Source of the DNA: Bdellovibrionales bacterium
Lineage (GTDB): Bacteria; Bdellovibrionota; Bdellovibrionia; Bdellovibrionales; CAYMLA01
Direction of reading: 5' to 3'
NCBI GenBank assembly: GCA_965217115.1
Contig: OZ244239.1
Coordinates: forward strand, 902,392-966,391
Length of the DNA stretch: 64,000 nucleotides
Within the stretch, counting starts at the first letter, position 1. Every line of letters starts with the position of its first letter. Below the pieces are notes generated by a model. The model had not been told where the DNA came from, did not search any database, and saw only the letters and a program-made list of their open reading frames with translations. The position numbers were made by a program, and so were the translations under genes. Positions 1,832 through 39,239 of this stretch are shown here, in pieces.

Positions 1832-4555
1832 ATGGGAAATCTAAATCGAGACGTGCTAGAATCTATCGTGAAACGAGTGCATTACCTAATGATACAAATG
1901 ATTCATATTGCCAACCACCGTAAAGAAAAAGTCAAAGGGGACCCTAAAGTAGGAGGACACCCTGCCGCTTGCGCATCTGCCCTACACATTATGGGAGCTA
2001 TTCACCTTATTGCAAAATCAGGGTTTGATCACGTCGTTAACAAGCCCCACGCTTCTCCTGTAGATCATTCCTATAATTATTTGCTTCGTCAGTTTTTCCA
2101 TGAAGATGGCACTGCTTTTTCAGACGAAGAAGCTAACAGAGTCATGCACTGCTTGCGTGCCTTTCCCCAAGAAAGCCAATCTCAAGCCCAACCCGTTTTT
2201 CAATCCTATCACTCGGCCTACGACCCTGATTACCATGGATTCTTACCATCCGGGACTGTCGGCATTCCTCCCGTCAATGCTGGTTACTTAGCTCTTGCCT
2301 ACCGCTATGCTGAAAAACATGGATACAAGGTTCCTGACGCTCATTTTTGGTGTCTTATGGGTGACTCTGAGTTCCGCGAGGGCTCTTTATTTGAAGCCAT
2401 TCCTGAATTTGCAGAACGACAATTGGGTAACCTCACTTGGATTTTAGATTACAATCGTCAAAGTCTCGACGGGCATCGTATGAATAATAAAAATATCATG
2501 GATGGCACTGACGATATACGTATAGAGAGAACCATGGAAGCCAACGGCTGGAATGTTATTCAAATTCGTCATGGCGCTCTCCGTCAAAGTCTATTTAAAA
2601 AGAAAGGAGGAGAGACGTTTCAAAAATTGATTGAAGACACTCTCGAAGATTATGAATTACAAGCCATCCTTATGGTCAAAGATATAAAATCCTTAAAAAA
2701 AGGTCTCATTCACTCACATCCTGATCTTAAGGACTTTCTTAAGAATGTGAGCGATAGAGAACTCTATGAGGGGTTTCGTGATTTCGGAGGGCATAACATT
2801 ATCACTATTGCCGACGCCCTTGAAGAAAGTAAAAAAGATCCTTTAAAACCAACCATGATTATCTGTCATACCTTAAAAGGTTGGCAGATGGATGCTGCGG
2901 CTATGCCTGGAAACCACTCAAGCCTCCCCACTGCCAAAGAAGTGGACAAACTAAGGGAAGCCCAGGGGATTTCACAGGAACAACTGTTCTCTCATTTTGC
3001 AGATTTCAGTAAAGAAGATAAATTTCTTCGCCAACGTGGGACTTCTATTCTCAAAGAAGTTCAAAATGAGAAAAAACTCAAAGAAAGTAATATCTTATTT
3101 TTTAGAGAAATAATGGAAAATTTCGGAAAGCTCCCTGACTCTCTTGATATTAATCTTAAGATGGCCAGTTACCCTCACACCCAATGGATGCTCGGACAAC
3201 TCACTGCTAAACTCACTCGCATTGCCAACACCCCTCTGGATGAGACAAAACTACAGGAGAAACAAAAACCTCTTAGTGATTTCGAAAAATCATGGAAACT
3301 CCCCAGTGAAGTTCTTGTCTCCATGGCTCCAGATGTGGGCACCAGTACCAACCTCAACCCAGCAATGAACGGAAAAATATTTGGCGCTGAAATTTCCACC
3401 GACCATGAAGCTGAGATGAATGTAAAAGATAGAAATACACCTGATTTGGTTCAACACGAAAATAACTCCAGCCGTTACATTCGCTTTGAAATTGCTGAAG
3501 CCAACACCATGTCCTGTGTCGGTTCTTTCGGGAAGATACGCGATATTCTTGGCATTCCTCTACTACCATTAATGACTGTTTACGATTTTTTTATTAAAAG
3601 AGCCTTAGATCAATACTTTTACAATATGTATTGGAGATCTAGCTTTATCCTTGTTGGAACTCCATCAGGTGTCACCCTCTCCTCCGAAGGAGCACAACAT
3701 GGTTGGAAATCAGATATTCAAATTCCCAATCAAATCACATGGGAACCTGCCTTTTGTATCGAGCTTGATTGGATCCTCTGTGATGCAATTAAGCGGCACA
3801 TGACCTTTAACAACGAAGGACGTAATGGTGTCGTCATACGTGGGGTCACTCGGGGGATTGAACAAAAAAATCTCATAAAATATCTACGTCAACAAACCCG
3901 TTTCAAAAATAATTGGGATGGAAGAGAAATCACTCACCATGATTTTCCCATGGACAACAGCACTGATGAATCCTCCCTCCCTTGCATTGACGACCTCTCT
4001 ATCATGGAACAATTAAGACAAGATGTCCTTGCTGGTGCCTATTACCTGATAGACTATCGCCACTACAGTAGCTATGACCCTGGAGACAATGTCATTAATA
4101 TCTTTGTCATGGGTTCTATGGTCACTGAAGGAGTTAAAGCCTCTGAATCTCTCTTGCAAAAAGGAATTTACGCCAATATTATCGTTGTTACTAGTTCGGA
4201 CCTTCTCGTTGGCAACCTTGGCCACGACAATGATTACTCCCACCTTAAACACGGATTAAATATCAATGGGAATCTCCACCTAAACTCCGACAATGCCACG
4301 TCATCTGAAGAATTCCAAACAATGGCTGGACGGCGGGTCCCCGTCGTCAGCGTTCATGACGGTGAGCCTGGACTACTCGATAATATCGGTTCCATCTTAG
4401 GTGTTAAACAACAAACTCTGGCTGTGCGCAAACACTCCCGCTGCGGACGACCTGATGATATCTATCAATACCACAGTATTAATCATCAAGCCATTGTTGA
4501 GGCTGTTGAAAAGGTTCTGTCTGAAACAGCGTTAGAAATGGTCTTGGCAAAATGA
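1832..4555 (+). CDS. Divergent AceE-like thiamine-diphosphate-dependent 2-oxoacid dehydrogenase E1 component (homodimeric type)
   Basis: 907 aa. Blocks align by eye to E. coli AceE: 'GGHPAACASA', 'MGDSEFREGSLFEAI...NLTWILDYNRQSLDG' (TPP GDG-N motif), 'GWNVIQIRHG', 'GGHN', 'HTLKGW', 'SEGAQHGW'. No E2/E3 genes adjacent. Confidence 0.75.
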   Translation: MGNLNRDVLESIVKRVHYLMIQMIHIANHRKEKVKGDPKVGGHPAACASALHIMGAIHLIAKSGFDHVVNKPHASPVDHSYNYLLRQFFHEDGTAFSDEEANRVMHCLRAFPQESQSQAQPVFQSYHSAYDPDYHGFLPSGTVGIPPVNAGYLALAYRYAEKHGYKVPDAHFWCLMGDSEFREGSLFEAIPEFAERQLGNLTWILDYNRQSLDGHRMNNKNIMDGTDDIRIERTMEANGWNVIQIRHGALRQSLFKKKGGETFQKLIEDTLEDYELQAILMVKDIKSLKKGLIHSHPDLKDFLKNVSDRELYEGFRDFGGHNIITIADALEESKKDPLKPTMIICHTLKGWQMDAAAMPGNHSSLPTAKEVDKLREAQGISQEQLFSHFADFSKEDKFLRQRGTSILKEVQNEKKLKESNILFFREIMENFGKLPDSLDINLKMASYPHTQWMLGQLTAKLTRIANTPLDETKLQEKQKPLSDFEKSWKLPSEVLVSMAPDVGTSTNLNPAMNGKIFGAEISTDHEAEMNVKDRNTPDLVQHENNSSRYIRFEIAEANTMSCVGSFGKIRDILGIPLLPLMTVYDFFIKRALDQYFYNMYWRSSFILVGTPSGVTLSSEGAQHGWKSDIQIPNQITWEPAFCIELDWILCDAIKRHMTFNNEGRNGVVIRGVTRGIEQKNLIKYLRQQTRFKNNWDGREITHHDFPMDNSTDESSLPCIDDLSIMEQLRQDVLAGAYYLIDYRHYSSYDPGDNVINIFVMGSMVTEGVKASESLLQKGIYANIIVVTSSDLLVGNLGHDNDYSHLKHGLNINGNLHLNSDNATSSEEFQTMAGRRVPVVSVHDGEPGLLDNIGSILGVKQQTLAVRKHSRCGRPDDIYQYHSINHQAIVEAVEKVLSETALEMVLAK

Positions 4556-17166: not shown

Positions 17167-17230
17167 CCGTTGTTCCCCCGCTGTTCCCCATTGTCCCCCC
17201 CCCTGTTCCCCCCGCTGTTCCCAGTCCCCG
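17167..17230 (+). repeat. C-rich 11-12-nt tandem motif, longest array
   Basis: 'cgttgtt cccccgctgtt ccccattgt ccccccccctgtt ccccccgctgtt cccagtccccg'. Confidence 0.8.
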
Positions 17231-17577: not shown

Positions 17578-18618
17578 TTATCTGCCAGAAGTTAAGTTCT
17601 CTATGTAGGCCTTAAGCCCCCCCCCCGAACAAGGTACACACCCCACCTTACCCACAACAAACCCCGCTGCAAAATTAGACAAAACACAGGAATCTAATAG
17701 TGACAATTGAGCTGCCTTTGCTAACGCTAAAGTTGCTACCACAGTATCCCCCGCCCCCGTCACATCAAAAACCTGACGGGCATAGGTGGGAACAATGTTC
17801 ACTTGTTCTGCGCTGTAAAGAACCATTCCTTCACTTCCCCGAGTTAAAACCAATTCATCGGCGCCTATTTTATCACGAATTCTCTGTCCTAAATTTAAAA
17901 TAGCCTGCTCATCTTGCCAACAACGATCAAAAGATTCTCCCAAAAGAGTTAAACTCTCCTCAAAATTGGGCTTAAATAGATTCGCCCCGCGATAAAAATC
18001 CAGGGGAGTCTCTCGATGGGGGTCAATTAAAACTTGCTTAGAAGATGACTTGGCAATGAGCAAAATTTCTTGAATCAAAGTCTCATTCAACAGTCCTTTG
18101 GCGTAATCCTGTAAAACAACCGCTTGGCACTGATCAATATTATCCTTGATCACTTGCAATATCTTCCTATGAACACTCTCACTGATATCCTGACGACGCT
18201 CATAATCAACGCGCACAATGTGATTATGACCTGTCATAACTCGAGCTTTACGTGTCGTTGGACGGCAGGAGTCTTCCACAAGATATTGACCTTCAATTCC
18301 CTCTCTCTCTAAAATATCACGTAACTTATCAGCTCCTTGGTCCTTTCCAATCACTGAAACAAGAATAGGATAACCCCCCAAACCGACAATATTATGAGCT
18401 ACATTGGCCGCCATCCCCAGACGAGTATCTTCTTTTTTAACCTCTAGAACTGGCACTGGAGCTTCTGGGCTAATTCTGCGCACATCACCAGTGATATATT
18501 CATCCAACCCACAATCACCTACCACTAAGATTCTCTTATCTGACAGAGTTTCAACTTGTTGTAAGAGCTTCGGTAAAAGTTCTTTACCTGGAATAGAGCT
18601 TTGAAAGGGCTTTAACAT
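17578..18618 (-). CDS. hldA: D-glycero-beta-D-manno-heptose-7-phosphate kinase (RfaE domain I type, PfkB family)
   Basis: 'ILVVGDCGLDEYITGDVRRISPEAPVPVL' is the RfaE-kinase hallmark, and 'DVTGAGDTVVATLA' is the PfkB motif. The last ~22 codons are encoded by repeat-related sequence. Confidence 0.85.
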   Translation of the reverse strand: MLKPFQSSIPGKELLPKLLQQVETLSDKRILVVGDCGLDEYITGDVRRISPEAPVPVLEVKKEDTRLGMAANVAHNIVGLGGYPILVSVIGKDQGADKLRDILEREGIEGQYLVEDSCRPTTRKARVMTGHNHIVRVDYERRQDISESVHRKILQVIKDNIDQCQAVVLQDYAKGLLNETLIQEILLIAKSSSKQVLIDPHRETPLDFYRGANLFKPNFEESLTLLGESFDRCWQDEQAILNLGQRIRDKIGADELVLTRGSEGMVLYSAEQVNIVPTYARQVFDVTGAGDTVVATLALAKAAQLSLLDSCVLSNFAAGFVVGKVGCVPCSGGGLKAYIENLTSGR

Positions 18619-27710: not shown

Positions 27711-30647
27711 ATGAATAGCTTCTTTCCGTCACTTGATAACATGAACAATAATGAAGAGTTTATTTCAAGACACATTGGTCCTAATTCCTCAGAGACTCAA
27801 GAAATGCTACAAAGCTTAGGAGTTAGTGATTTTGATAGCCTCATTAATAAAACACTTCCTGAAAATATTCTCACGAAGAAAGATTTTGACTTAAAACACG
27901 CACAAACAGAACACCAAACTCTCAAAGAGATCAAAGCTCTCGCTAAACAAAACCAGATTTACCGTACTTACATTGGCATGGGGTTTCACGATACCATCAC
28001 ACCTCCCGTTATTCAGAGAAATGTTTTTGAAAATCCTGGCTGGTACACAGCTTACACCCCCTATCAACCAGAGATTTCACAGGGACGCTTAGAGGCTCTT
28101 ATTAATTTTCAAACCATGTGTTCTGAGCTCACTGGAATGGATATCTCTAATGCCTCTCTTCTCGATGAAGGAACTGCTGCAGCCGAAGCCATGATTTTGT
28201 GCCGCAATCAAATTCGTGATAAGAACAGGAAGACTTTCTTCATCAGCGACGACACCCATCCACACACTATTGAGGTTATCAAGACCCGCGCCCAACACTT
28301 GGATATAAATATACAAATCGGCCCTGTTGTCTCTACAGATTGGTCTCTGTGTTTTGGAGCATTGCTCTCCTATCCGAACACCTATGGTTCCATTGAGAAT
28401 ATGAGTTCGCTCATTGCTAAAATACAAGGAAATGGTGCTCTTGTTGCTGTTGCAGTAGATCTACTCAGCTTAACTATTCTCAAGCCTCCCGGGGAGATGG
28501 GTGCAAATGTTGTCGTCGGTAACACACAGCGCTTTGGTGTTCCACTTGGTTTTGGCGGTCCCCATGCCGCATTTATGGCCACACAAGATAAATTTAAACG
28601 CAGTCTTCCTGGCCGCATAGTCGGTGTTTCGGTGGATACTAAAGGACGCAAATCTTATCGATTGGCTCTACAGACACGGGAACAGCACATCCGTCGAGAG
28701 AGAGCATCAAGTAATATCTGCACCGCCCAAGTTCTTTTGGCCAATATGGCTTCTTTCTATGCTGTTTATCATGGTCCACAGGGGCTTATTCGTATTGCTA
28801 AACGTATTCACAAACTCACATCGGCACTCTACGAAGGACTGCAGTCTTTAGGTTTTGAATGTCTTCACGGAGATTTTTTTGACACAATCGTTCTTCGCAC
28901 AGTCACTCCATCTACTGAAAAAAAAGGACAGAAAAGCAACGACGAGATTTATCAAGAAGCATTGAATAAAAAAATTAACCTCAGAAAGGTCCCTCAAGGT
29001 TTAAGTATTTCCCTTAACGAAACAACGACTTCTGAGGATATTTCTGACATTTTAGAAGTTTTTAGTGGACAAAAAAGAGACCTCACAAAGCTCATCGCAG
29101 ATGCATCTAAAAAAATCCCTGATGACCTTATTCGATTATCTACTTTTATGACTCATAAGGTTTTTAACTCTTTTCACAGTGAAACATCCATGCTCCGTTA
29201 CATTCAAAAATTACAGAACAAAGATCTCTCACTCACGCAAGCCATGATTCCTCTAGGCTCTTGCACCATGAAGCTCAATGCCACCACAGAACTTATCCCC
29301 GTGTCCTGGCCTGAGTTTAATAAGATCCATCCCTTTGTGCCTTTAGATCAAGCCAAAGGTTATCTACAGCTCATCAAAGAAACGGAACAAATGCTTGCCA
29401 CTATCACTGGTTTCTCTTGCGTATCACTGCAACCCAACGCCGGCTCCCAAGGAGAGTTTGCAGGTCTACTTGTTATACGTCGCTACCAACAGGAGAAAAA
29501 TCAAGGGGAACGTAATATATGCCTCATACCCCATTCAGCCCATGGCACTAATCCTGCCAGCGCTGTTATGTCAGGACTTAAAGTCGTCGTCATCAAATGT
29601 GATAACGATGGTAATATTGACGTTGACGATTTAAAAAACAAAGCTCAAGAACACAAGTCCCACTTATCTAGTTTAATGATCACCTATCCTTCCACCCACG
29701 GAGTCTACGAAGAAACCATCCAAAACATCTGTAAAATTATTCACGATAACGGCGGACAGGTCTACATGGACGGAGCCAACATGAATGCTCTTGTCGGGTT
29801 GGCTCGCCTTCCCGAGTTAGGGGCCGATGTGTGTCATCTAAATCTCCATAAAACATTTGCCATTCCCCACGGTGGCGGCGGTCCAGGCGTTGGACCCATT
29901 GGCGTCGCAGAACATTTAAAAAACTTCCTCCCAAACCATGGACTCGTTCCTGAGGCTGGACCTATCACGGGAATTGGTTCTACGACCTCGGCTCCTTGGG
30001 GAAGCGCCAGTATTTTACCCATCTCTTGGGCATATATGAAGATGCTGGGAGGCAACGGCCTCAGAAAAGCCACTGAATATGCTATTTTAAACGCTAACTA
30101 CATTGCTAAGAAATTAGAAAACCATTATGAAATTTTGTACAAGGGAAAAAATGGCATGGTCGCCCACGAGTGCATTATTGATGTCAGACCCTTCAAACAA
30201 AGTGCGGGTGTCACGGTTGATGATATCGCTAAACGACTGATTGATTATAGTTTTCACGCACCAACAATGTCTTGGCCTGTCCCCGGAACTCTTATGGTGG
30301 AACCCACAGAGAGCGAAGAAAAAAAAGAACTGGATCGCTTTATCAATGCCATGATCCGTATTCGAAAAGAGATACAGGCTATTGAAGAAGGTGTCTACTC
30401 CCGAGAAGACAACGTTCTCAAAAATGCTCCTCATACAGTTGAAGGCCTCATTGCCCCCTCTTGGAGTCATGAGTATCCAAGGGACGAAGCTGCTTACCCT
30501 GTTCCTGGTTTAAGAGATAACAAGTACTGGGCTCCTATTACAAGAATCGACAATGCCTATGGCGATCGCAACTTAGTTTGCTCCTGTCCTGCCATAGAAG
30601 AATATGAGACAGAAGAATATGAAACAGAAGAACATGAAACGAAATAA
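27711..30647 (+). CDS. gcvP: Glycine dehydrogenase (decarboxylating), glycine cleavage P protein
   Basis: 978-aa single-chain P protein with 'GWYTAYTPYQPEISQGRLEAL', 'HLNLHKTF' (PLP Lys) and 'AYGDRNLVCSC'. Confidence 0.95.
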   Translation: MNSFFPSLDNMNNNEEFISRHIGPNSSETQEMLQSLGVSDFDSLINKTLPENILTKKDFDLKHAQTEHQTLKEIKALAKQNQIYRTYIGMGFHDTITPPVIQRNVFENPGWYTAYTPYQPEISQGRLEALINFQTMCSELTGMDISNASLLDEGTAAAEAMILCRNQIRDKNRKTFFISDDTHPHTIEVIKTRAQHLDINIQIGPVVSTDWSLCFGALLSYPNTYGSIENMSSLIAKIQGNGALVAVAVDLLSLTILKPPGEMGANVVVGNTQRFGVPLGFGGPHAAFMATQDKFKRSLPGRIVGVSVDTKGRKSYRLALQTREQHIRRERASSNICTAQVLLANMASFYAVYHGPQGLIRIAKRIHKLTSALYEGLQSLGFECLHGDFFDTIVLRTVTPSTEKKGQKSNDEIYQEALNKKINLRKVPQGLSISLNETTTSEDISDILEVFSGQKRDLTKLIADASKKIPDDLIRLSTFMTHKVFNSFHSETSMLRYIQKLQNKDLSLTQAMIPLGSCTMKLNATTELIPVSWPEFNKIHPFVPLDQAKGYLQLIKETEQMLATITGFSCVSLQPNAGSQGEFAGLLVIRRYQQEKNQGERNICLIPHSAHGTNPASAVMSGLKVVVIKCDNDGNIDVDDLKNKAQEHKSHLSSLMITYPSTHGVYEETIQNICKIIHDNGGQVYMDGANMNALVGLARLPELGADVCHLNLHKTFAIPHGGGGPGVGPIGVAEHLKNFLPNHGLVPEAGPITGIGSTTSAPWGSASILPISWAYMKMLGGNGLRKATEYAILNANYIAKKLENHYEILYKGKNGMVAHECIIDVRPFKQSAGVTVDDIAKRLIDYSFHAPTMSWPVPGTLMVEPTESEEKKELDRFINAMIRIRKEIQAIEEGVYSREDNVLKNAPHTVEGLIAPSWSHEYPRDEAAYPVPGLRDNKYWAPITRIDNAYGDRNLVCSCPAIEEYETEEYETEEHETK

Positions 30648-31446: not shown

Positions 31447-32409
31447 TTAAAGCTTTTCAGTAAAGTCTGTTAGTAAGAAATAACGATCGAATAGAGAGTT
31501 GTATCGGGACCACTTTTCCCCCGACTTTCGTTCGTCTTTCATAAAACCTTCAAGAATATTTATACGACTATCAAGTTCATCCACCATAGAAACAACAAGA
31601 GCCTCTAAAAACTTAGGTCGCTTAGGGCTGCCAAACTCCAACTTACCGTGATGACTTAAAACAATATGCTTACAGATATCTCTTAACTCATCAGAGAAGC
31701 CTTCAATATGATTTGATTTCCTATCGATCAATTCTAAGGCAATGCCCATATGCCCTATCAACCGCCCTTTATCCGTGTAAGAAGTCGTTCCTCCATAGGA
31801 CAACTCCCAAACCTTACCTATATCGTGATAAATAGCTCCAAAATACAGAAGATCTCGATTCAAAGTCTGATAATGGCTGGACAAAAATTTCATGATTTTT
31901 AAAATAGACATCGTGTGATCTAAAAGTCCCCCTATCCATGCATGATGAATATTCTTTGCCGCAGGAGCCTTTAATAGCAATGGCTTTATTTCTTTATCAT
32001 TAACCGTATTTTCCAGCAACTGTCGTAAATGACTATTTTCCACTTCATCAACAAATTGCAACAGCTCGACATACATTAACTCTGATGAATTATCACTCGC
32101 GGGTAGAAAGTCTTTAATATCATAATCATCGACTTGTACTTTTTGTATATCACGAATAATAATCTGCTTGCGCCCTTGAAAAACCTGTACAACTCCTTGC
32201 ACCCAGGATAAGTCACCATCATCAAACTTTTTGTTCAAGTCATCGGCATTATCCCAAACTCGCCCATCAATTTGTCCTGTTTTGTCAGAAAGCAACACAG
32301 ATAAGTAGGGTTTTCCCGTTTTTCCCATGTTTAGATGCTTCTCTTTCACAAGAAGAACTGTCTCTATTTTATCTTTTTCCTGGAAATGCTCTACACTGAT
32401 CTTTTTCAT
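31447..32409 (-). CDS. OB-fold + HD-domain 3'-5' exoribonuclease (YhaM-like)
   Basis: N-terminal OB fold ('GKPYLSVLLSDKTGQIDGRVW'). HD domain with 'HH...GGLLDHT', 'YHDIGK' and 'LSHHG'. Confidence 0.8.
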   Translation of the reverse strand: MKKISVEHFQEKDKIETVLLVKEKHLNMGKTGKPYLSVLLSDKTGQIDGRVWDNADDLNKKFDDGDLSWVQGVVQVFQGRKQIIIRDIQKVQVDDYDIKDFLPASDNSSELMYVELLQFVDEVENSHLRQLLENTVNDKEIKPLLLKAPAAKNIHHAWIGGLLDHTMSILKIMKFLSSHYQTLNRDLLYFGAIYHDIGKVWELSYGGTTSYTDKGRLIGHMGIALELIDRKSNHIEGFSDELRDICKHIVLSHHGKLEFGSPKRPKFLEALVVSMVDELDSRINILEGFMKDERKSGEKWSRYNSLFDRYFLLTDFTEKL

Positions 32410-32466
32410 GTGATTATCTTATAATGATTTGATCAAAGAAACATCGTTTTTTTTCACATCTCTCTC

Positions 32467-33627
32467 TTATCGCACTATTCCTTGCTCCCCATGACTCCCT
32501 CCACCGTCACCCTGTGAATCTTTTTTTGGATGCTTCTTAGCAATCGCCTGTTGCACCTTTTCCTCACAAGTTTGATTATAATCGCCCATTATTTTAGCTG
32601 ATTTCTTAGACTGGAAGTTCTGCAAAGCTCCCTCGCAACAATCAGCAATGAGTGTTGTGAGCCCTTCTTTAAAAAGGGGTTTGAAATTCTTCTCTGCCAA
32701 TGCTTTTACATTAAATTCAACGTGATAGGTGAATGGGCTTTTCCCTAAATCTTTAAAAAAGGCTCCTGAGAAATCACTCTCTTGAACAAACCTAGGGTGT
32801 TCTTTGTCGGTTTTAGCAAATAAACCCTTTTCGTCCAGTTCCCTAAGACCATCCCCTGCAAATACAAGGATTTTATCACCACTTGATATATTTTTTATTC
32901 TTGGAAAACTAAAATCTCCATCTTTGATCCCTAAGGTGTACTTCTTGCCCCCTACTGTTATATCAGAAAATGATCGACCCTTCTTATCCCTGCGACAGGT
33001 AAATTCTGTTGGATTTAAAGACTCCAACAACCTTTCATCCGCGGAATCAACATTCTTGTATATAGTCATGCCTACCCAAGTTATACCAGCAATGACTCCA
33101 TTAATGGCAATTGAAATTGGCAACATATTAGCAGTTGTGATAACAATACCAACAGCATGGGCTTTAGGCGCTATTAATGATAAGAACACAGACGGTGATT
33201 TACTTGGTTTTTGATAGAGTTTATTTATCGCTGTGTAAAGGGAGCGAAAACTCCTATGGGAGGTCGCATTTAACTCTTTGCCATTAATAAGGAACTTTCC
33301 CTCAATGGCTTTTTGAAAACCGACGTTGACCTTCTCGCCACCCACCCTCATCACCAGATCATTGCCACTCACGGAGAGTTTTATCTTTTGGGATTTAGGT
33401 GTTTGCTCTATCAGATCTTGGATGAACTTCCTGTCGTCTTTCAACTTCAATATCTTCTTTAAACCAACGAACATCTCCCGCGCATGGACGCCATGGATCT
33501 GTTCATAGGCTCGACCCATTAACTCTTGATTCACATCACTCAAAGGAGTCCCAAACACGACGGGTGAAAAAAGCAAGCCCACCATAGATGTAAAAAAAAC
33601 TGACATCAGTAAAACCATTCTCTTCAT
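32467..33627 (-). CDS. Secreted paralogue 1 of a tandem four-gene family (unknown function)
   Basis: SD 'ggaagg' 6 nt before ATG 33627. Signal peptide 'MKRMVLLMSVFFTSMVGLLFSPVVFG'. Has the conserved N-domain, a unique hydrophobic segment (about 33040-33153) and a Cys-containing C-domain. Confidence 0.75.
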   Translation of the reverse strand: MKRMVLLMSVFFTSMVGLLFSPVVFGTPLSDVNQELMGRAYEQIHGVHAREMFVGLKKILKLKDDRKFIQDLIEQTPKSQKIKLSVSGNDLVMRVGGEKVNVGFQKAIEGKFLINGKELNATSHRSFRSLYTAINKLYQKPSKSPSVFLSLIAPKAHAVGIVITTANMLPISIAINGVIAGITWVGMTIYKNVDSADERLLESLNPTEFTCRRDKKGRSFSDITVGGKKYTLGIKDGDFSFPRIKNISSGDKILVFAGDGLRELDEKGLFAKTDKEHPRFVQESDFSGAFFKDLGKSPFTYHVEFNVKALAEKNFKPLFKEGLTTLIADCCEGALQNFQSKKSAKIMGDYNQTCEEKVQQAIAKKHPKKDSQGDGGGSHGEQGIVR

Positions 33628-33672
33628 CAGAAACCTTCCATTCAAATTCAATGGGTTTTTCATGTGCTGCTC

Positions 33673-34845
33673 TTATTTCACTGTTGTTCTATTATTAGTC
33701 GTTCCATCATCACCTGATGAATCTTTTTTTGGATGCTTTTTAGCAATCGCCTGTTGCACCTTTTCCTCACAAGTTCGACTCCTAGCGCCCATCGTTCCAT
33801 ATGATCTCTTATTAAATTGGAAGTTCTCCAAAGCTCCATCGCAACAATCAGCAATGGCTGTGAGCCCTACTCTTAAAAAAGGCTTGAAATTTTTCTCTGC
33901 CAATTTTTTTAACCCACGTTTATCACCTTGATAAAAGCGGCTGCTTTTATAGTCTCTAAAAACAGCTTTTGAGAAATCACTCGCCTGAACAGATTTAGGG
34001 TATGGCTCGGTTCTAATAACTGAACCCCTTCTGTACCGTCCCCTAAAACCATCATTTGCAAATATAATCTCTCTTTTATGCCCATCAGCCTTACCAACTG
34101 ATATGCTTTTTATTCTTGGACGATTAAACGCTCCATCTCTGATCTTTAAGGTGTACTTCTTGCCCCCTACTGTTATATCAGAAAATGACTGATCATCCTT
34201 ATCCCTGCGACAACTAAATTCCGTTGGATCTAAAGATTGCAGCAGCCTTTCATCCATAGGAGTGCCTCCAAGATTCGTATCTGACCCTAGAAAATCTATA
34301 CCATTAAGAATTGAGGGTATAAGAATTACAGGAGTCATTGCAGCAATAGCAGAAGTAGCTATCAAACCAAGAGCATAGGCTTTAGGCGCTATTAACGATA
34401 AAAACACAGACGGTGATTTACTTGGCTTTTGATAGAGTTTATTTATCGCCGTGTAAAGAGACCGAAAACTCCTATGGGAGGTCACATTTAACTCTTTGCC
34501 ATTAATAAGGAACTTTCCCTCGATGGCTTTTTGAAAGCCAACGTTGATCTTCTCTCCCCCCACACTCATCACCAGATCATTGCCACTCACGGAGAGTTTT
34601 ATCTTTTGGGATTTAGGTGTTTGCTCTATCAGCTCTTGGATGAATTTCCTGTCGTCTTTCAACTTCAATATCTTCTTTAAACCAACGAACATCTCCCGCG
34701 CATGGACGCCATGGATCTGTTCATAGGCTCGACCCATTAACTCTTGATTCACATCACTCAAAGGAGTCCCAAACACGACTGGTGAAAAAAGCAAACTCAC
34801 CATAGATGTAAAAAAAACTGACATCAGTAAAACCATTCTCTTCAT
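33673..34845 (-). CDS. Secreted paralogue 2
   Basis: Same architecture as paralogue 1. Start ATG 34845 after 'aaggaaggtctgtg'. Unique segment at about 34255-34374. Confidence 0.75.
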   Translation of the reverse strand: MKRMVLLMSVFFTSMVSLLFSPVVFGTPLSDVNQELMGRAYEQIHGVHAREMFVGLKKILKLKDDRKFIQELIEQTPKSQKIKLSVSGNDLVMSVGGEKINVGFQKAIEGKFLINGKELNVTSHRSFRSLYTAINKLYQKPSKSPSVFLSLIAPKAYALGLIATSAIAAMTPVILIPSILNGIDFLGSDTNLGGTPMDERLLQSLDPTEFSCRRDKDDQSFSDITVGGKKYTLKIRDGAFNRPRIKSISVGKADGHKREIIFANDGFRGRYRRGSVIRTEPYPKSVQASDFSKAVFRDYKSSRFYQGDKRGLKKLAEKNFKPFLRVGLTAIADCCDGALENFQFNKRSYGTMGARSRTCEEKVQQAIAKKHPKKDSSGDDGTTNNRTTVK

Positions 34846-34889
34846 CACAGACCTTCCTTTCAAATTCAATGATTTTTCATGTGCTGCTC

Positions 34890-36071
34890 TTAGTGCACTG
34901 CCGGAGTATCCCTAAAACGCACTCCACCGTTATCTTGTGAATCTTTTTTTGGATGCTTTTTAGCAATCGCCTGTTGCAGCTTTTCCTCACAAGTTCGACT
35001 CCTAGCGCCCATCGTTCCATATGATCTCTTATTAGATTGGAAGTTCTCCAAAGCTCCCTCGCAACAATCAGCAATGGCTGTGAGCCCTACTTTTAAAAAA
35101 GGCTTGAAATTTTTCTCTGCCAATTTTTTTAACCCACGTTTATCACCTTGATAAAAGCGGCTGCTTTTATAGTCTCTAAAAACAGCTTTTGAGAAATCAC
35201 TCTCCTGAACAGGTTCAGGGCGGTATGGCTCGGTTCTAATAAAAAGTAAACCATTTCTGTACCGTCCCCTAAAACCATCATTTGCAAATATAATCTCTTT
35301 TTTATGCCCATCAGCCTTACCAATTGATATACTTTTTATTCTTGGGCGATTAAACGCTCCATCTCTGATCTTTAAGGTGTACTTCTTGCCACCCACTGTT
35401 ATATCAGAAAATGGTTGATCATCCTTATCCCTGCGACAACTAAATTCCGTTGGATCTAAAGATTGCAACAGCCTTTCATCCATAGGAGTGCTTCCAAGAT
35501 TCGTATCTGCCCTTAGAAAATCCAGAACAGTCCAAATTGTGGGAGCAACAATTGCACCAAGCATTGCACCAATACCAACACTAGCTATCAAACCAACAGC
35601 ATGGGCTTTAGGCGCTATTAATGATAAAAACACAGACGGTGATTTACTTGGTTTTTGATAGAGTTTGTTTATCGCCGTGTAAAGGGACCGGAAACTCCTA
35701 TGGGAGGTCGCATTTAACTCTTTGCCATTAATAAGGAACTTTCCCTCAATGGCTTTTTGAAACCCGACGTTGATCTTCTCGCCACCCACCCTCATCACCA
35801 GATCATTGCCACTCACGGAGAGTTTTATCTTATGGGATTTAGGTGTTTGCTCTATCAGCCCTTGGATGAATTTCCTGTCGTCTTTCAACTTCAATATCTT
35901 CTTTAAACCAACGAACATCTCCCGCGCATGGACGCCATGGATCTGTTCATAGGCTCGACCCATTAACTCTTGATTCACATCACTCAAAGGAGTCCCAAAT
36001 ACGACTGGTGAAAAAAGCAAGCCCACCATAGATGTAAAAAAAACTGACATCAGTAAAACCATTCTCTTCAT
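34890..36071 (-). CDS. Secreted paralogue 3
   Basis: Same architecture. The C-domain is about 90% identical to paralogue 2 by eye. Unique segment at about 35481-35597. Confidence 0.75.
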   Translation of the reverse strand: MKRMVLLMSVFFTSMVGLLFSPVVFGTPLSDVNQELMGRAYEQIHGVHAREMFVGLKKILKLKDDRKFIQGLIEQTPKSHKIKLSVSGNDLVMRVGGEKINVGFQKAIEGKFLINGKELNATSHRSFRSLYTAINKLYQKPSKSPSVFLSLIAPKAHAVGLIASVGIGAMLGAIVAPTIWTVLDFLRADTNLGSTPMDERLLQSLDPTEFSCRRDKDDQPFSDITVGGKKYTLKIRDGAFNRPRIKSISIGKADGHKKEIIFANDGFRGRYRNGLLFIRTEPYRPEPVQESDFSKAVFRDYKSSRFYQGDKRGLKKLAEKNFKPFLKVGLTAIADCCEGALENFQSNKRSYGTMGARSRTCEEKLQQAIAKKHPKKDSQDNGGVRFRDTPAVH

Positions 36072-36166
36072 CATAGACCTTCCTTTCAAATTCAATGATT
36101 TTTCATGTGCTGTTCTTAACCAATACTCTTTAAGCAGAGAAATGCTAAATTTTAAACACCTCTCTC

Positions 36167-37336
36167 TTATCGCACTATCTGACTATCCTTACCAGACACT
36201 CCACCGTCACTCTGTGAATCTTTTTTTGGATGCTTTTTAGCAATTGCCTGTTGCACCTTTTCCTCACAATTTCGCTTATCAGCGCCCATCGTTCCATATG
36301 AGATCTTAGCCTGGAATTTCTGCAAAGCTCCCTCGCAACAATCAGCAATGGCTGTGAGCCCTGCTTTTAAAAAAAGTTTGAAATTCTTCTCTGCCAATGG
36401 TCTTACCGTGTCTGAATCTTTTTCGTAAAAGCGCCTGCTTTTATGGTCTCTAAAAACAGCTTTTGAGAAATCACTCGCTTGAACAGACCCAGGGGTTCCT
36501 GTGTCCTCTCTAAAAATGGTACCATTTTTGTACAGTCCCCTAAAACCATCATTTGCAAATGTCATCGTTTTTTTATCCCCATCATCCTTACCAACTGATA
36601 TACTTTTTATTCTTGGAAAACTAAACGCTCCATCTCTGATCTCTAAGGTGTACTTCTTGCCCCCTACTGTTATATCAGAAAATGATTGCCCCTTCTTCCT
36701 GCGACAACCAAAGTCCGTTGGATTTAAAGACTGCAACAAGCTTTCATCCGCACCAATAGCTCCAAAACCAATACCCATCTTTGTAGATATAAAGTCATTA
36801 GAAAACGCAACAGCGGTAGCAACTCCTGCTGCTGCTGCTGCTGCTACACCCAACATAACACCAGCATGGGCCTTAGGCACTATTAATGATAAAAACACAG
36901 ACGGTGATTTACTTGGTTTTTGATAGAGTTTGTCTATCGCCGTGTAAAGGGACCGGAAACTCCTATGGGAGGTCGCATTTAACTCTTTGCCATTAATAAG
37001 GAACTTTCCCTCAATGGCTTTTTGAAACCCGACGTTGATCTTCTCGCCACCCACCCTCATCACCAGATCATTGCCACTCACGGAGAGTTTTATCTTATGG
37101 GATTTAGGTGTTTGCTCTATCAGCCCTTGGATGAATTTCCTGTCGTCTTTCAACTTCAATATCTTCTTTAAACCAACGAACATCTCCCGCGCATGGACGC
37201 CATGGATCTGTTCATAGGCTCGACCCATTAACTCTTGATTCACATCACTCAAAGGAGTCCCAAACACGACTGGTGAAAAAAGCAAGCTCACCATAGATGT
37301 AAAAAAAACTGACATCAGTAAAACCATTCTCTTCAT
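36167..37336 (-). CDS. Secreted paralogue 4
   Basis: Same architecture. The unique segment at about 36746-36862 includes a (GCA)6 Ala6 run at 36827-36844. Confidence 0.75.
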   Translation of the reverse strand: MKRMVLLMSVFFTSMVSLLFSPVVFGTPLSDVNQELMGRAYEQIHGVHAREMFVGLKKILKLKDDRKFIQGLIEQTPKSHKIKLSVSGNDLVMRVGGEKINVGFQKAIEGKFLINGKELNATSHRSFRSLYTAIDKLYQKPSKSPSVFLSLIVPKAHAGVMLGVAAAAAAGVATAVAFSNDFISTKMGIGFGAIGADESLLQSLNPTDFGCRRKKGQSFSDITVGGKKYTLEIRDGAFSFPRIKSISVGKDDGDKKTMTFANDGFRGLYKNGTIFREDTGTPGSVQASDFSKAVFRDHKSRRFYEKDSDTVRPLAEKNFKLFLKAGLTAIADCCEGALQKFQAKISYGTMGADKRNCEEKVQQAIAKKHPKKDSQSDGGVSGKDSQIVR

Positions 37337-37526
37337 CACAGACCTTCCTTTACAAGAACTCTTTAAAATTCACCACTGACATAGTGTATAACACTCCAAT
37401 CCCGGGTCCTAGTTCCATTCCTCATTTCCATTTTAATTCTTGGCTTAAGACTGGAAGTGAACTAGACCTTTGTGTTATGTAAATTTCTTAAGATCTCTTG
37501 CAAAAAAAACCCGAAATCGCCCGATC

Positions 37527-39239
37527 TCAAAGGCTCTTGCCCCCTCGATAACGATACAGAGGCAGGTAATTAGGATAGAGTTTTTCAATTTTCTCAATCC
37601 AATATTTTTTTCGCTTTGAAGTTTTTAACAACCCCATATAAGCAGGGAGAAGGCGACTGTTTATCTTTAAAGCCTCTTGCCAACGACTCTTAGCACATTT
37701 TAACTTGTTTCTCTCAGCACAAATTGATCCTTCTATTAAAAAAGGCAGGGCATATTTCTTGCTTTTTTGGGCAACTCTTCCTGATGAGATTGCCTCTCCA
37801 TCTTGCCCTGTTCTTCTCAAGTAAAAGGCTCGAATTGTCTGAACAAAGCCATCCTTTGGAGCCATGAACACAGCCTCGTCAATAAATTTAGTCGCCTCAT
37901 GCTCCCTCTGGGATAAAACCAAGCACAAGGAATAAAGAGCTCTCTGTCTACTCTTTCTTAAAAGATTCTCTGAAACAAATTTACATTCATCAAATAAATC
38001 AATCCAATCAATATCACTTTTATAAACTAAGATATCCCTGTAATAATTCTGTGGGCTATCTCCTAAAGCATCTAAAAAGCCCCTTAGAAACCTCCCCTCC
38101 TTTTTCGTATTTCCCAGTATTGCACTGTAAGCTTTCAACAAAAAAGCGGGCGCTCTATAAGGGTTTAACTGATCAGTCACAATTTTCAATGCCTGATTAG
38201 CTCTCAATAAAATTTTCCCCCGCTCTTTGCCTTGAAGGTTTTTTTTATACTCCTTTAAATACCCCCAACCAGAGATAAAGTAAGATAACAGAGAGGACTC
38301 TCCAACCTCCATCACTTCCTTAGAGGATGTTTTTAAATTTCTCCATTGCTTTTGATGGAAATTTAACATCATTTTATTTAACAGAGCTGAAGTGAAATTT
38401 CCGTTAATACTTAAAGCCTTCAACAGTTGATTTTCAGCTTGCTCCCAATCATTGCTCTCCATATAGAGAAGGCCCAAAGCCGTGTAAACCTCCACTGCGA
38501 CTTGCCTCCCTCTCTTAGATGCAAGCAAGGACTCTAATTCCCTCCGAGCAGCAACTCTCTCTCCCTTCAGAATCATACGCAAAGGAGATAGCTTCACTAA
38601 AATCTCTGATTGATTGGGGATTAAAACATCTGCTTGAGATAAAAAACTCCACGCACCTTCATAATCACCCACCTGATAAGAATCCCATCCTTTATTTGCC
38701 AAGTTTTCAAAATTATTTATTTTAGATTTAAACACACTGTTTTTGATTAAAAAAAACACTCCTGATATGAGAATAAATGCCACGACTGTGACCCACAGGT
38801 ATTTTCGATAGGATGAGATTTTTTTTTCAACCTCTCTCTCTATATTTGAACCAAAACGCTTTTCTGCTTTTTTACTTTCCCCCTTAATAAGTTCCTCTGG
38901 CAATACAAACTCAGGATCTGTTTTATCAAAATTACCAACATCCAGAACATCTGTGTCCGTAATTGTATTATTAATACTTACGGTTCTTGTCTTATCATTC
39001 AGAGAGAGATTTGTTCTCTCTATCGTGCTGTCCATCATCTCTTCTCTTAATTTGGAAAAATGAGGCTCTAAAGAGATTTGACAATATCTTCCGAAGGGCT
39101 GACAAATCTCATCGTCATCGATAAGGTTTCCATTTTGTAAATGCTCTGCAATTTCATTATAACTATAGGGACCAAGTAGCTCACCATTAGAGCGAACAAG
39201 CCATTTTTTTATTTGTTTATCATTCTTCTTTAAAGACAC
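37527..39239 (-). CDS. GYF_2-domain / TPR-repeat membrane protein
   Basis: N-terminal 'WLVRSNGELLGPYSYNEIAEHLQNGNLIDDDEI' (GYF_2-like), one TM helix ('YLWVTVVAFILISGVFFLI'), then TPR-like repeats. Confidence 0.65.
   Translation of the reverse strand: MSLKKNDKQIKKWLVRSNGELLGPYSYNEIAEHLQNGNLIDDDEICQPFGRYCQISLEPHFSKLREEMMDSTIERTNLSLNDKTRTVSINNTITDTDVLDVGNFDKTDPEFVLPEELIKGESKKAEKRFGSNIEREVEKKISSYRKYLWVTVVAFILISGVFFLIKNSVFKSKINNFENLANKGWDSYQVGDYEGAWSFLSQADVLIPNQSEILVKLSPLRMILKGERVAARRELESLLASKRGRQVAVEVYTALGLLYMESNDWEQAENQLLKALSINGNFTSALLNKMMLNFHQKQWRNLKTSSKEVMEVGESSLLSYFISGWGYLKEYKKNLQGKERGKILLRANQALKIVTDQLNPYRAPAFLLKAYSAILGNTKKEGRFLRGFLDALGDSPQNYYRDILVYKSDIDWIDLFDECKFVSENLLRKSRQRALYSLCLVLSQREHEATKFIDEAVFMAPKDGFVQTIRAFYLRRTGQDGEAISSGRVAQKSKKYALPFLIEGSICAERNKLKCAKSRWQEALKINSRLLPAYMGLLKTSKRKKYWIEKIEKLYPNYLPLYRYRGGKSL

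Follow-up and report, generated by a model that had tools for sequence, protein, structure and literature searches.

A tandem array of putative single-pass envelope proteins with a hypervariable, predicted transmembrane centre in a Bdellovibrionales bacterium

Background

Surface antigens and lipoproteins provide well-known examples of tandem gene families in which concerted evolution is combined with local diversification. In Msp2/P44 of Anaplasma and the Opa-type surface proteins of Neisseria, a hypervariable region, central or in a loop, is set in a conserved frame and diversified by segmental gene conversion. These proteins are beta-barrel outer-membrane antigens of host-associated pathogens, and Msp2/P44 has one expression site in addition to truncated silent cassettes. 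Methyl-accepting chemotaxis proteins (MCPs) and histidine kinases consist of a first transmembrane segment, a periplasmic domain, a second transmembrane segment and a cytoplasmic output domain, and the periplasmic domain is usually their variable part. For the tandem lpl paralogues on the nuSa-alpha island of Staphylococcus aureus, a conserved intragenic segment is described as the substrate of homologous recombination (Tsuru and Kobayashi 2008, PMC2568036). The two-transmembrane (2TM) families of Plasmodium (RIFIN, STEVOR and Pfmc-2TM) combine a signal sequence and a conserved domain with hypervariability at or next to the transmembrane segments (PMC1751529). Here we analyse an array of four tandem paralogous genes in the genome of a Bdellovibrionales bacterium, within a stretch of 64,000 nucleotides (the window; contig OZ244239.1, positions 902,392 to 966,391). 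The array shares features with each of these systems, and its most variable part is a predicted transmembrane helix.

Organisation of the array

The list of open reading frames (ORFs) contains four complete paralogous minus-strand ORFs between 32467 and 37339, and their coordinates bear out the tandem arrangement with start-to-start periods of 1218, 1226 and 1265 bp that had been reported in an initial annotation of this DNA. The ATG of MKRM was chosen as the start codon because an invariant GGAAGG lies 6 nucleotides (nt) upstream and because in c2 and c3 the starts farther upstream are not in frame; with this start the genes occupy 32467-37336. Every copy has its own GGAAGG ribosome-binding site at this distance 5' of the ATG (4 of 4) and the same, invariant signal peptide MKRMVLLMSVFFTSMV, both as annotated. 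On the minus strand c4 is transcribed first, followed by c3, c2 and c1 (lengths in amino acids, aa):

36167-37336, minus strand: copy c4, 389 aa; signal peptide 37259-37336, N-domain 36863-37258, hydrophobic centre 36749-36862, C-domain 36170-36748
34890-36071, minus strand: copy c3, 393 aa; signal peptide 35994-36071, N-domain 35598-35993, centre 35481-35597, C-domain 34893-35480
33673-34845, minus strand: copy c2, 390 aa; signal peptide 34768-34845, N-domain 34372-34767, centre 34255-34371, C-domain 33676-34254
32467-33627, minus strand: copy c1, 386 aa, the most divergent copy; signal peptide 33550-33627, N-domain 33154-33549, centre 33040-33153, C-domain 32470-33039

The C-domains carry four conserved cysteines (C..CC..C) and the tail AIAKKHPKKDS, in agreement with the earlier description. 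That description had overlooked the centre of 38-39 codons being strongly hydrophobic in every window copy. The common 3' end of c1 and c4 (ATAGTGCGATAAGAGAGAG) and the longer spacer between c4 and c3 (95 nt, against 44 and 45 nt between the other copies) are likewise as first noted.

The family also forms a tandem array, of at least five copies, on an independent metagenome contig of the European Nucleotide Archive (L001, 5119 bp), and the array of the window is therefore not an assembly artefact. Copy number differs between the two strains, four in the window and at least five in L001, as is expected from the unequal recombination that had been proposed for this locus.

An element AGCACATGAAAAATCATTGAATTTGAAAGGAAGG is present 5' of c3, c2 and c1 and not of c4 (window 32410-32466 and the inter-copy spacers, e.g., 34846-34889), and has CACATGAAAAA in common with the HD-domain gene downstream, where that gene starts (ATGAAAAAG at 32409). 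The ATG of the element reads in frame into c1, extending the N-terminus by 12 residues, and runs into a stop in c2 and c3. All copies, and the other strain as well, have antisense ORFs of 60 aa and about 89 aa over the most conserved coding stretches (window, plus strand: 33326-33508, 34544-34726, 35770-35952, 37035-37217 and 33662-33931; L001, minus strand: 603-872, 1810-2082 and 3029-3298). They are probably by-products of coding conservation and not genes.

Conservation and mosaicism of the N-half

The first 158 codons are 96-99% identical in nucleotide sequence among the four copies. The initial annotation had treated the first ~165 codons as almost invariant; the near-identity stands, while the conserved N-half ends at codon 158. 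Sliding-window identity (60 nt, mean pairwise, four copies) is 0.92-1.00 in columns 1-450, 0.44-0.46 in columns 481-570 and 0.65-0.95 after that, a profile that is not uniform and has a sharp central drop. In the N-half the proportion of synonymous differences (pS) is 0.02-0.14, that of nonsynonymous differences (pN) 0.008-0.019, and the ratio of nonsynonymous to synonymous substitution rates (dN/dS) 0.1-0.2. Nonsynonymous change is significantly deficient in all but one of the six pairs (P=5e-6 to 5e-4 in the five), whose differences are almost all at third codon positions; strong purifying selection therefore acts on the N-domain. The near-identity of the N-halves, earlier ascribed to homogenised flanks, stems largely from this selection and not from homogenisation alone.

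The copies are nevertheless mosaics. Parsimony-informative sites in the N-half group c3 with c4 (12/34; 4:1:0), whereas those in the centre and C-half group c2 with c3 (14/23; 45 vs 11). A 183-nt stretch had been singled out before; it is indeed identical in c3 and c4, but differs from c1 and c2 at 5-6 positions rather than 1-3, and the full identical tract measures 330 nt (c3 35670-35999, c4 36935-37264). In Sawyer-type permutations this c3-c4 tract has P=0.001 pairwise and 0.33 globally, and the c2-c3 run has P<0.0005 both pairwise and globally. Segment-specific incongruence and overlong identical tracts, the two signatures of interlocus gene conversion, are thus present, and the mosaic phylogeny together with the 330-nt tract upholds the gene conversion suggested initially. 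Copy D of L001 is likewise a mosaic, with a c4-like middle and a c3-like tail.

Codons 33-52 (60 nt; c3 35916-35975) are invariant, silent sites included, in all eight copies that cover the region in the two strains; a hot spot of conversion or an RNA-level constraint could account for this block. One offset tandem duplication, comprising centre, C-half, spacer and next N-half, was considered as the source of the relationships among c3, c2 and c1 and dropped, since in the N-half the closest pair is one other than c1 and c2.

The array does not resemble systems that switch expression. The T8 of the signal peptide, in a window where runs of at least 8 nt are common (35 in 64 kb), is 8 nt long in all eight copies containing it in the two strains and gives no sign of a phase-variable tract. 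Silent cassettes of the Msp2/P44, PilE/pilS or VlsE kind are not represented among the four copies, which are full-length and each have a ribosome-binding site, a start codon and a signal peptide, and no partial cassettes were found elsewhere in the 64-kb window.

The hypervariable centre

The 35-40 central codons had been thought unrelated in every copy. This holds for c1 and c4; c2 and c3 share one class with 77% nucleotide identity between them. The window copies carry three classes (values are for the Kyte-Doolittle 19-mer):

36749-36862, minus strand: centre of c4, own allele class, GVMLGVAAAAAAGVATAVAFSNDFISTKMGIGFGAIGA, 2.11
35481-35597, minus strand: centre of c3, class I allele, VGLIASVGIGAMLGAIVAPTIWTVLDFLRADTNLGSTPM, 2.22
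34255-34371, minus strand: centre of c2, class I allele, LGLIATSAIAAMTPVILIPSILNGIDFLGSDTNLGGTPM, 2.12
33040-33153, minus strand: centre of c1, own allele class, VGIVITTANMLPISIAINGVIAGITWVGMTIYKNVDSA, 1.76

Class I also includes copies A, B, C and E of L001, and copy D represents a further class, so that at least four classes exist. The c3 centre is 91% identical to that of L001 copy A, and the c2 centre matches the partial copy E at 74 of 74 nt (L001 5046-5119). As this c2/E allele is identical in two strains, the centre alleles appear to be stable types and not the product of ongoing hypermutation. Between classes the nucleotide identity is 35-51%, and global alignment scores are no better than those of codon-shuffled controls, with two marginal exceptions (c4 vs L001 copy D, z=3.3; c4 vs c2, z=2.4). 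No nucleotide homology beyond these controls was found between the c4 centre and the c1 or c3 centre; the c1 centre has none to any other centre, and neither the window nor L001 contains it a second time. An origin of any centre from another by inversion or frameshift was rejected, as there is no similarity on the plus or minus strand and no score above the codon-shuffled controls.

Point substitution cannot erase homology where flanking pS is at most 0.25, and the centres must therefore be either old alleles with homogenised flanks or non-homologous replacements. Synonymous divergence climbs gradually into the centre: pS is 0.00-0.10 at aa 1-100, 0.11-0.25 at aa 91-160 and 0.33-0.59 in the centre, and then falls from 0.27 to 0.06. 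Because this gradient rises from both sides, we favour the first origin, and the classes are most likely old alleles that conversion tracts have not crossed. It is conceivable, if unlikely, that the classes are instead recent replacements by slippage, small indels or illegitimate recombination. The abrupt borders and the varying length of the centres (38-42 codons across classes) are in accordance with such events, and in a genome of 40% GC T-rich sequence easily yields hydrophobic stretches. The c4 centre moreover contains a (GCA)6 trinucleotide run (36827-36844, minus strand) encoding the Ala6 core of the helix, which could change length by slippage and may show how helix variants arise. Recent replacement does not, however, predict the two-sided climb of pS, which is what an old polymorphism would show if conversion tracts ended before reaching it; two strains have class I and the c2/E allele in common, and no donor sequence is present in the window or in L001.

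Among the alignable centres, amino acid change clearly exceeds silent change. Between c2 and c3 the centre has a pN of 0.28 against a pS of 0.07 (against the gene-wide pS of 0.095, Fisher P=5e-5), and the differences number 12, 11 and 3 at codon positions 1, 2 and 3. In all ten alignable pairs of class I centres pN/pS is 2.6-8.8, and several codons encode four or five residues among five alleles with the third position unchanged. Helical periodicity of the variability in the class I helix was not significant (P=0.12). The excess of pN over pS supports diversifying selection on the centre, as the initial annotation had proposed.

Variation in the C-domain

Variability is not localised to the centre, contrary to the first description. 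The C-terminal ~190 codons show 75-93% nucleotide identity among the copies, and the C-halves of c2 and c3, earlier given as about 90% identical in this domain, reach 93%. Overall C-half dN/dS is 0.9-1.45, which is statistically indistinguishable from 1, with differences even over the three codon positions. Invariant blocks (FSDITVGGKKYTL, LAEKNFK, IADCC and CEEK.QQAIAKKH) alternate with variable patches, one of which is given here for c3:

35253-35342, minus strand: C-domain patch in c3, aa 244-273, RIKSISIGKADGHKKEIIFANDGFRGRYRN, nonsynonymous change far above synonymous

In this patch pN/pS is 3.1-13.3 at a pS of 0.02-0.04 (pooled, seven sequences) and 2.5-5.2 among the four window copies. 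A second patch, before the last Cys, has a pN/pS of ~5.

We also have to consider that constraint may simply be relaxed, with helix and C-half of redundant paralogues drifting neutrally and nothing selected to differ. The overall C-half ratio and its even distribution over codon positions would fit, as would the tolerance of transmembrane helices for many hydrophobic substitutions and the frameshifts in two of the five L001 copies; these, however, come from an assembly of 2x coverage and may be sequencing errors. We regard relaxation as improbable, because neutral drift can neither raise pN above pS, as observed in the centre (P=5e-5; ten of ten pairs) and in the C-domain patches (ratios of 3-13), nor erase all homology of the centres at the flanking pS of at most 0.25. 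All four window ORFs are open (P ~0.016 for 235 codons staying open after 140 random substitutions), the six C-half indels read from the alignment are all multiples of three, and the blocks FSDITVGGKKYTL, LAEKNFK and IADCC persist. The open frames and in-frame indels imply that the genes are not decaying.

Predicted membrane topology

The N-terminus, judged by inspection, has the make-up of a Sec-export signal, with MKR followed by VLLMSVFFTSMVGLLFSPVVF and V-F-G/TP, invariant in all copies. Cleavage is predicted after VFG; the hydrophobic region of 21 residues is long, and the N-terminus may act as an uncleaved anchor. A lipobox (L-x-x-C) is absent, with no Cys in residues 1-200 of any copy.

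Eight variants of the centre can be compared: the four window copies, three readable copies of L001 and a distant homologue (P0008, see below). As the sequence criterion for a bitopic, i.e., single-pass, membrane protein we took one internal uncharged hydrophobic stretch of at least about 20 residues with a Kyte-Doolittle 19-mer above ~1.6. All eight variants conform, with an uncharged hydrophobic stretch of 21-33 residues, a best 19-mer of 1.76-2.22 and at most one charged residue among the 25 aa with which the centre begins. Hydrophobicity is kept while the sequence changes freely, which is the behaviour of a lipid-embedded helix. The central cassette is most likely a stop-transfer transmembrane helix, and the array proteins are more likely bitopic membrane proteins than soluble secreted ones; their original designation as secreted proteins is therefore doubtful.

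A soluble secreted or periplasmic protein, whose centre would be a buried core, a pro-peptide junction cut after AHA or a helix entering a target (prey) membrane, is an improbable alternative, although several features recommend it. The N-terminal Sec signal is present, the conserved P-K/E-A-H/Y-A right before the hydrophobic stretch resembles an AXA signal-peptidase site, and an exposed C-domain would be in keeping with its four conserved Cys and its diversifying selection. The Bdellovibrionales, moreover, include predators that export many proteins. Yet an uncharged segment of 21-33 residues with a Kyte-Doolittle value of ~2 is expected, from established knowledge of stop-transfer sequences, to halt Sec translocation; hydrophobicity conserved without conserved sequence points to a lipid-embedded helix and not to a packed core, and no fold or homology pointing to a toxin or pore-former was detected.

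Programmed hypermutation of the centre by a diversity-generating retroelement or a similar system is highly improbable. Class I varies almost exclusively at the first two codon positions and retains T at the third (NNT), which superficially recalls AAY-templated mutagenesis. But neither the 64-kb window nor L001 contains a template repeat or a duplicate of any centre, and there is no reverse-transcriptase domain among the scanned ORFs (16.3-52.7 kb of the window, in a genome of 2.17 Mb). Adenines of the core (ATA9, ATT14, ATG17 and, at the third position, those of codons 16, 20 and 25) do not vary among five alleles, and third-position changes do occur. The classes differ by indels and lack homology, a result beyond the reach of mutagenesis by substitution alone, two strains share an identical allele, and the variable region is hydrophobic and lies in mid-gene instead of in a C-terminal lectin-type fold.

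Proposed model

With somewhat more confidence than doubt, we propose that the array encodes bitopic envelope proteins that evolve under three regimes and form a set of receptors or anchors. Our confidence is higher for the architecture and the evolutionary mode, and much lower for the function. Each protein would consist of a Sec-type signal peptide, a basic periplasmic N-domain of ~132 residues, one transmembrane helix and a C-domain of ~190 residues with a Lys-rich tail, which would face the cytoplasm, given a single stop-transfer helix. The co-oriented copies are probably co-transcribed as one operon, would be inserted as single-pass envelope proteins and may oligomerise. The array would have arisen, and would keep changing, through unequal recombination between the 1.2-kb periods.

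In the first regime, the N-domain would be held by purifying selection and homogenised by gene conversion, which implies one shared partner or ligand for all copies. In the second, the transmembrane and juxtamembrane segment would be maintained as at least four allele classes, with amino acid change 3-9 times silent change in the alignable class. In the third, invariant blocks of the C-domain would alternate with patches of pN far above pS, and selection would keep centres and patches distinct. The copies could then act as co-encoded receptors or anchors that share one outward module and differ in their membrane-embedded and inner modules; each would pair with a different partner or resist a different antagonist.

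Several points weigh against this model. The predicted topology is drawn from hydrophobicity alone, so that membrane insertion and orientation are deductions, and the positive-inside rule is uninformative because both the N- and the C-domain are basic (isoelectric point 8.6-10). A C-domain outside the cytoplasm would accord better with the four conserved Cys and the strong diversifying selection than one inside it. Two AlphaFold2 runs had a mean predicted local distance difference test (pLDDT) score of 37.8 and 44.1, i.e., no confident fold, and the domain borders are sequence-based. The selection tests use only 4-9 closely related, recombining sequences; their regions were picked after viewing the data, and the individual pairwise P values (0.004-0.15) are non-independent. 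Finally, the (GCA)6 run of c4 hints at an origin of the centres by slippage, and old alleles cannot be separated from recent non-homologous replacement with two strains.

A bolder version of the model makes the transmembrane helix itself the target of diversifying selection, as an intramembrane "barcode", different in each paralogue, for packing against partner helices or for escape from a membrane-acting antagonist (a toxin, phage protein or protease), with the periplasmic module invariant. We consider this a long shot; if true, it would be a bacterial example of specificity, or of an arms race, encoded inside the lipid bilayer.

Distribution of the family

The array proteins are a lineage-restricted, almost orphan family, and the initial failure to recognise a known family was borne out by the searches. 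For either domain there was no match at threshold in Pfam-A, NCBIfam, PADLOC or PHROGs (the best being chance matches at E=0.1-0.2), and a profile search of PDB sequences gave no hits at E<=10. Foldseek of the better of the low-confidence AlphaFold2 models against the PDB returned nothing credible (E>=0.46). A word-indexed search of ~5.8 billion proteins recovered nothing beyond the four array proteins themselves and two proteins from L001, and an exhaustive hidden Markov model search of 1.84 billion representatives added one protein, P0008 (E=2.4e-4). A search of genome contigs with the family profile found nothing, and neither did scans of metagenome and viral contigs.

P0008 is a single-copy hypothetical protein of 289 aa from JGI and Logan metagenomes (L082 10001-10870), 25% identical to the array proteins, and a search for further relatives of it found none. 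It shares with them, in the same order, a signal peptide, AIEGKF(I/L)(L/I)NG, P-E-A-H-A, a 23-residue hydrophobic helix, C..CC..C and a Lys-rich tail. Unlike the array, it is not repeated, its C-domain is about half as long, and it lies 3' of a 536-aa outer-membrane-like gene in a different neighbourhood, whose genes have no Pfam domains and no homologues in the window. An identical P0008 occurs on at least eight contigs from several samples, so that the hypervariation seen in the array is lacking. One of its neighbours (L082 11319-12971, minus strand) encodes 550 aa that begin with a signal peptide and include a hydrophobic stretch rich in Gly and Ala, GGVSVAAAGGIVGAIAQPL, and a C-terminal part containing Cys; by eye its layout resembles that of the array proteins.

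Genomic context

The array stands between two syntenic anchor genes, and the region 5' of c4 is its probable promoter region:

37527-39239, minus strand: upstream neighbour, 570-aa GYF/TPR protein (Pfam TPR hits), syntenic anchor; adjoins purH in at least six related Bdellovibrionales loci
37337-37526, minus strand: non-coding region 5' of c4, with GGAAGG at 37343-37348 and a T8 run right after the stop of the upstream GYF/TPR gene
31447-32409, minus strand: downstream neighbour, 320-aa OB-fold and HD-domain protein (Pfam HD and tRNA_anti-codon hits), syntenic anchor

A sigma-70 consensus scan gave no convincing promoter in 37337-37526, and consensus scans for promoters and terminators gave matches only within coding sequence. 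In at least six relatives the gene order is purH, the GYF/TPR gene, a gene for a lipoprotein-like protein of ~220-246 aa, and the OB-fold and HD gene; the HD-gene orthologues are 45-56% identical and lie 3' of the TPR gene, with the single lipoprotein-like gene between. In the window this gene is absent and the array fills its slot. The lipoprotein-like gene (L002 13247-13900, L005 3905-4618, L008 7132-7872, L009 13295-13963) is conserved and unannotated, with a G-x-G-C motif, a C-terminal Cys and no Pfam hit; a G-C lipobox-like site is present in three of the four syntenic proteins. Descent of the array from it was rejected (hhalign probability 0.8%; tblastn of the four proteins against the window, none below E=1.9).

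The flanks are core chromosome, with Mla transporter genes, alanine racemase and ftsQAZ on one side and an RsmI-like methylase, gcvP, pyrD and gdh on the other. The ORFs from 16 to 53 kb include no reverse transcriptase, transposase, phage or other mobile-element gene, and transfer RNA and Rfam scans of the window gave no hits. The base composition of the array is native (GC 0.40-0.43, matching its neighbours). PurH of the window is at most 59% identical to that of any GTDB species representative, the best matches being uncultured Bdellovibrionales.

Elsewhere in the window, poly-C tracts of 8-10 nt occur at 17195, 17617, 52348 and 57408, which is unusual at 39% GC; that at 17617 lies inside the 3' end of a pfkB-family kinase gene. 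GC skew is negative in all but one 2-kb window (to -0.34) and most genes are on the minus strand, which fits a location within one replichore with the plus strand as lagging-strand template. GcvP (single-chain glycine dehydrogenase, 978 aa) has an acidic repeat tail EEYETEEYETEEHETK at 30590-30647.

Comparison with known systems

Resemblance to MCPs and histidine kinases lies in the order of modules, i.e., an N-terminal hydrophobic segment, an extracytoplasmic domain of ~130 aa, a second helix and an inner domain of ~190 aa, as predicted here. No HAMP, kinase, MCP-signal, GGDEF or other signalling domain was detected in the array proteins, however, their signal peptide looks cleavable, and an invariant periplasmic domain is the opposite of the sensor pattern. 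With Msp2/P44 and Opa the array has in common the conserved flanks around a sharply bounded variable region, mosaic copies and an excess of nonsynonymous over synonymous change in that region. It differs from them in having four complete copies with their own ribosome-binding sites, in its variable element, a hydrophobic helix, and in its host, an uncultured environmental relative of the Bdellovibrionales.

The Plasmodium 2TM families, as they are portrayed in the source cited, are eukaryotic and have two transmembrane segments around a variable loop in dozens to hundreds of dispersed copies, so that the likeness is one of analogy only and not of homology (PMC1751529). The nearest described behaviour is that of the lpl cluster, where, according to the published account, tandem paralogues of exported proteins likewise show incongruent phylogenies within the ORF and strain-variable copy number and content (PMC2568036). 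In that account the layout is the mirror image of ours, with a conserved centre and variable flanks, and the products are lipoproteins on a genomic island (PMC2568036). The array proteins, by contrast, have no lipobox, a predicted internal transmembrane helix, a slot in the core chromosome and no sequence relationship to any known family.

The present value of the array is that of a lead rather than a result, as this is an orphan family of uncultured organisms with statistics from nine recombining sequences. If the signal holds in a larger sample, the array would offer a compact natural system for selection at helix-helix or helix-lipid interfaces, and would point to a function in the envelope that is peculiar to a little-known lineage of Bdellovibrionales. 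To our knowledge, a sharply bounded hypervariable element that coincides with a transmembrane helix is not a described pattern in bacteria, least of all beside an invariant extracytoplasmic domain and a second domain that diversifies in patches. The process, concerted evolution with local diversification, is familiar; the protein family is undescribed, and its variable cassette is, unusually, the predicted transmembrane helix.

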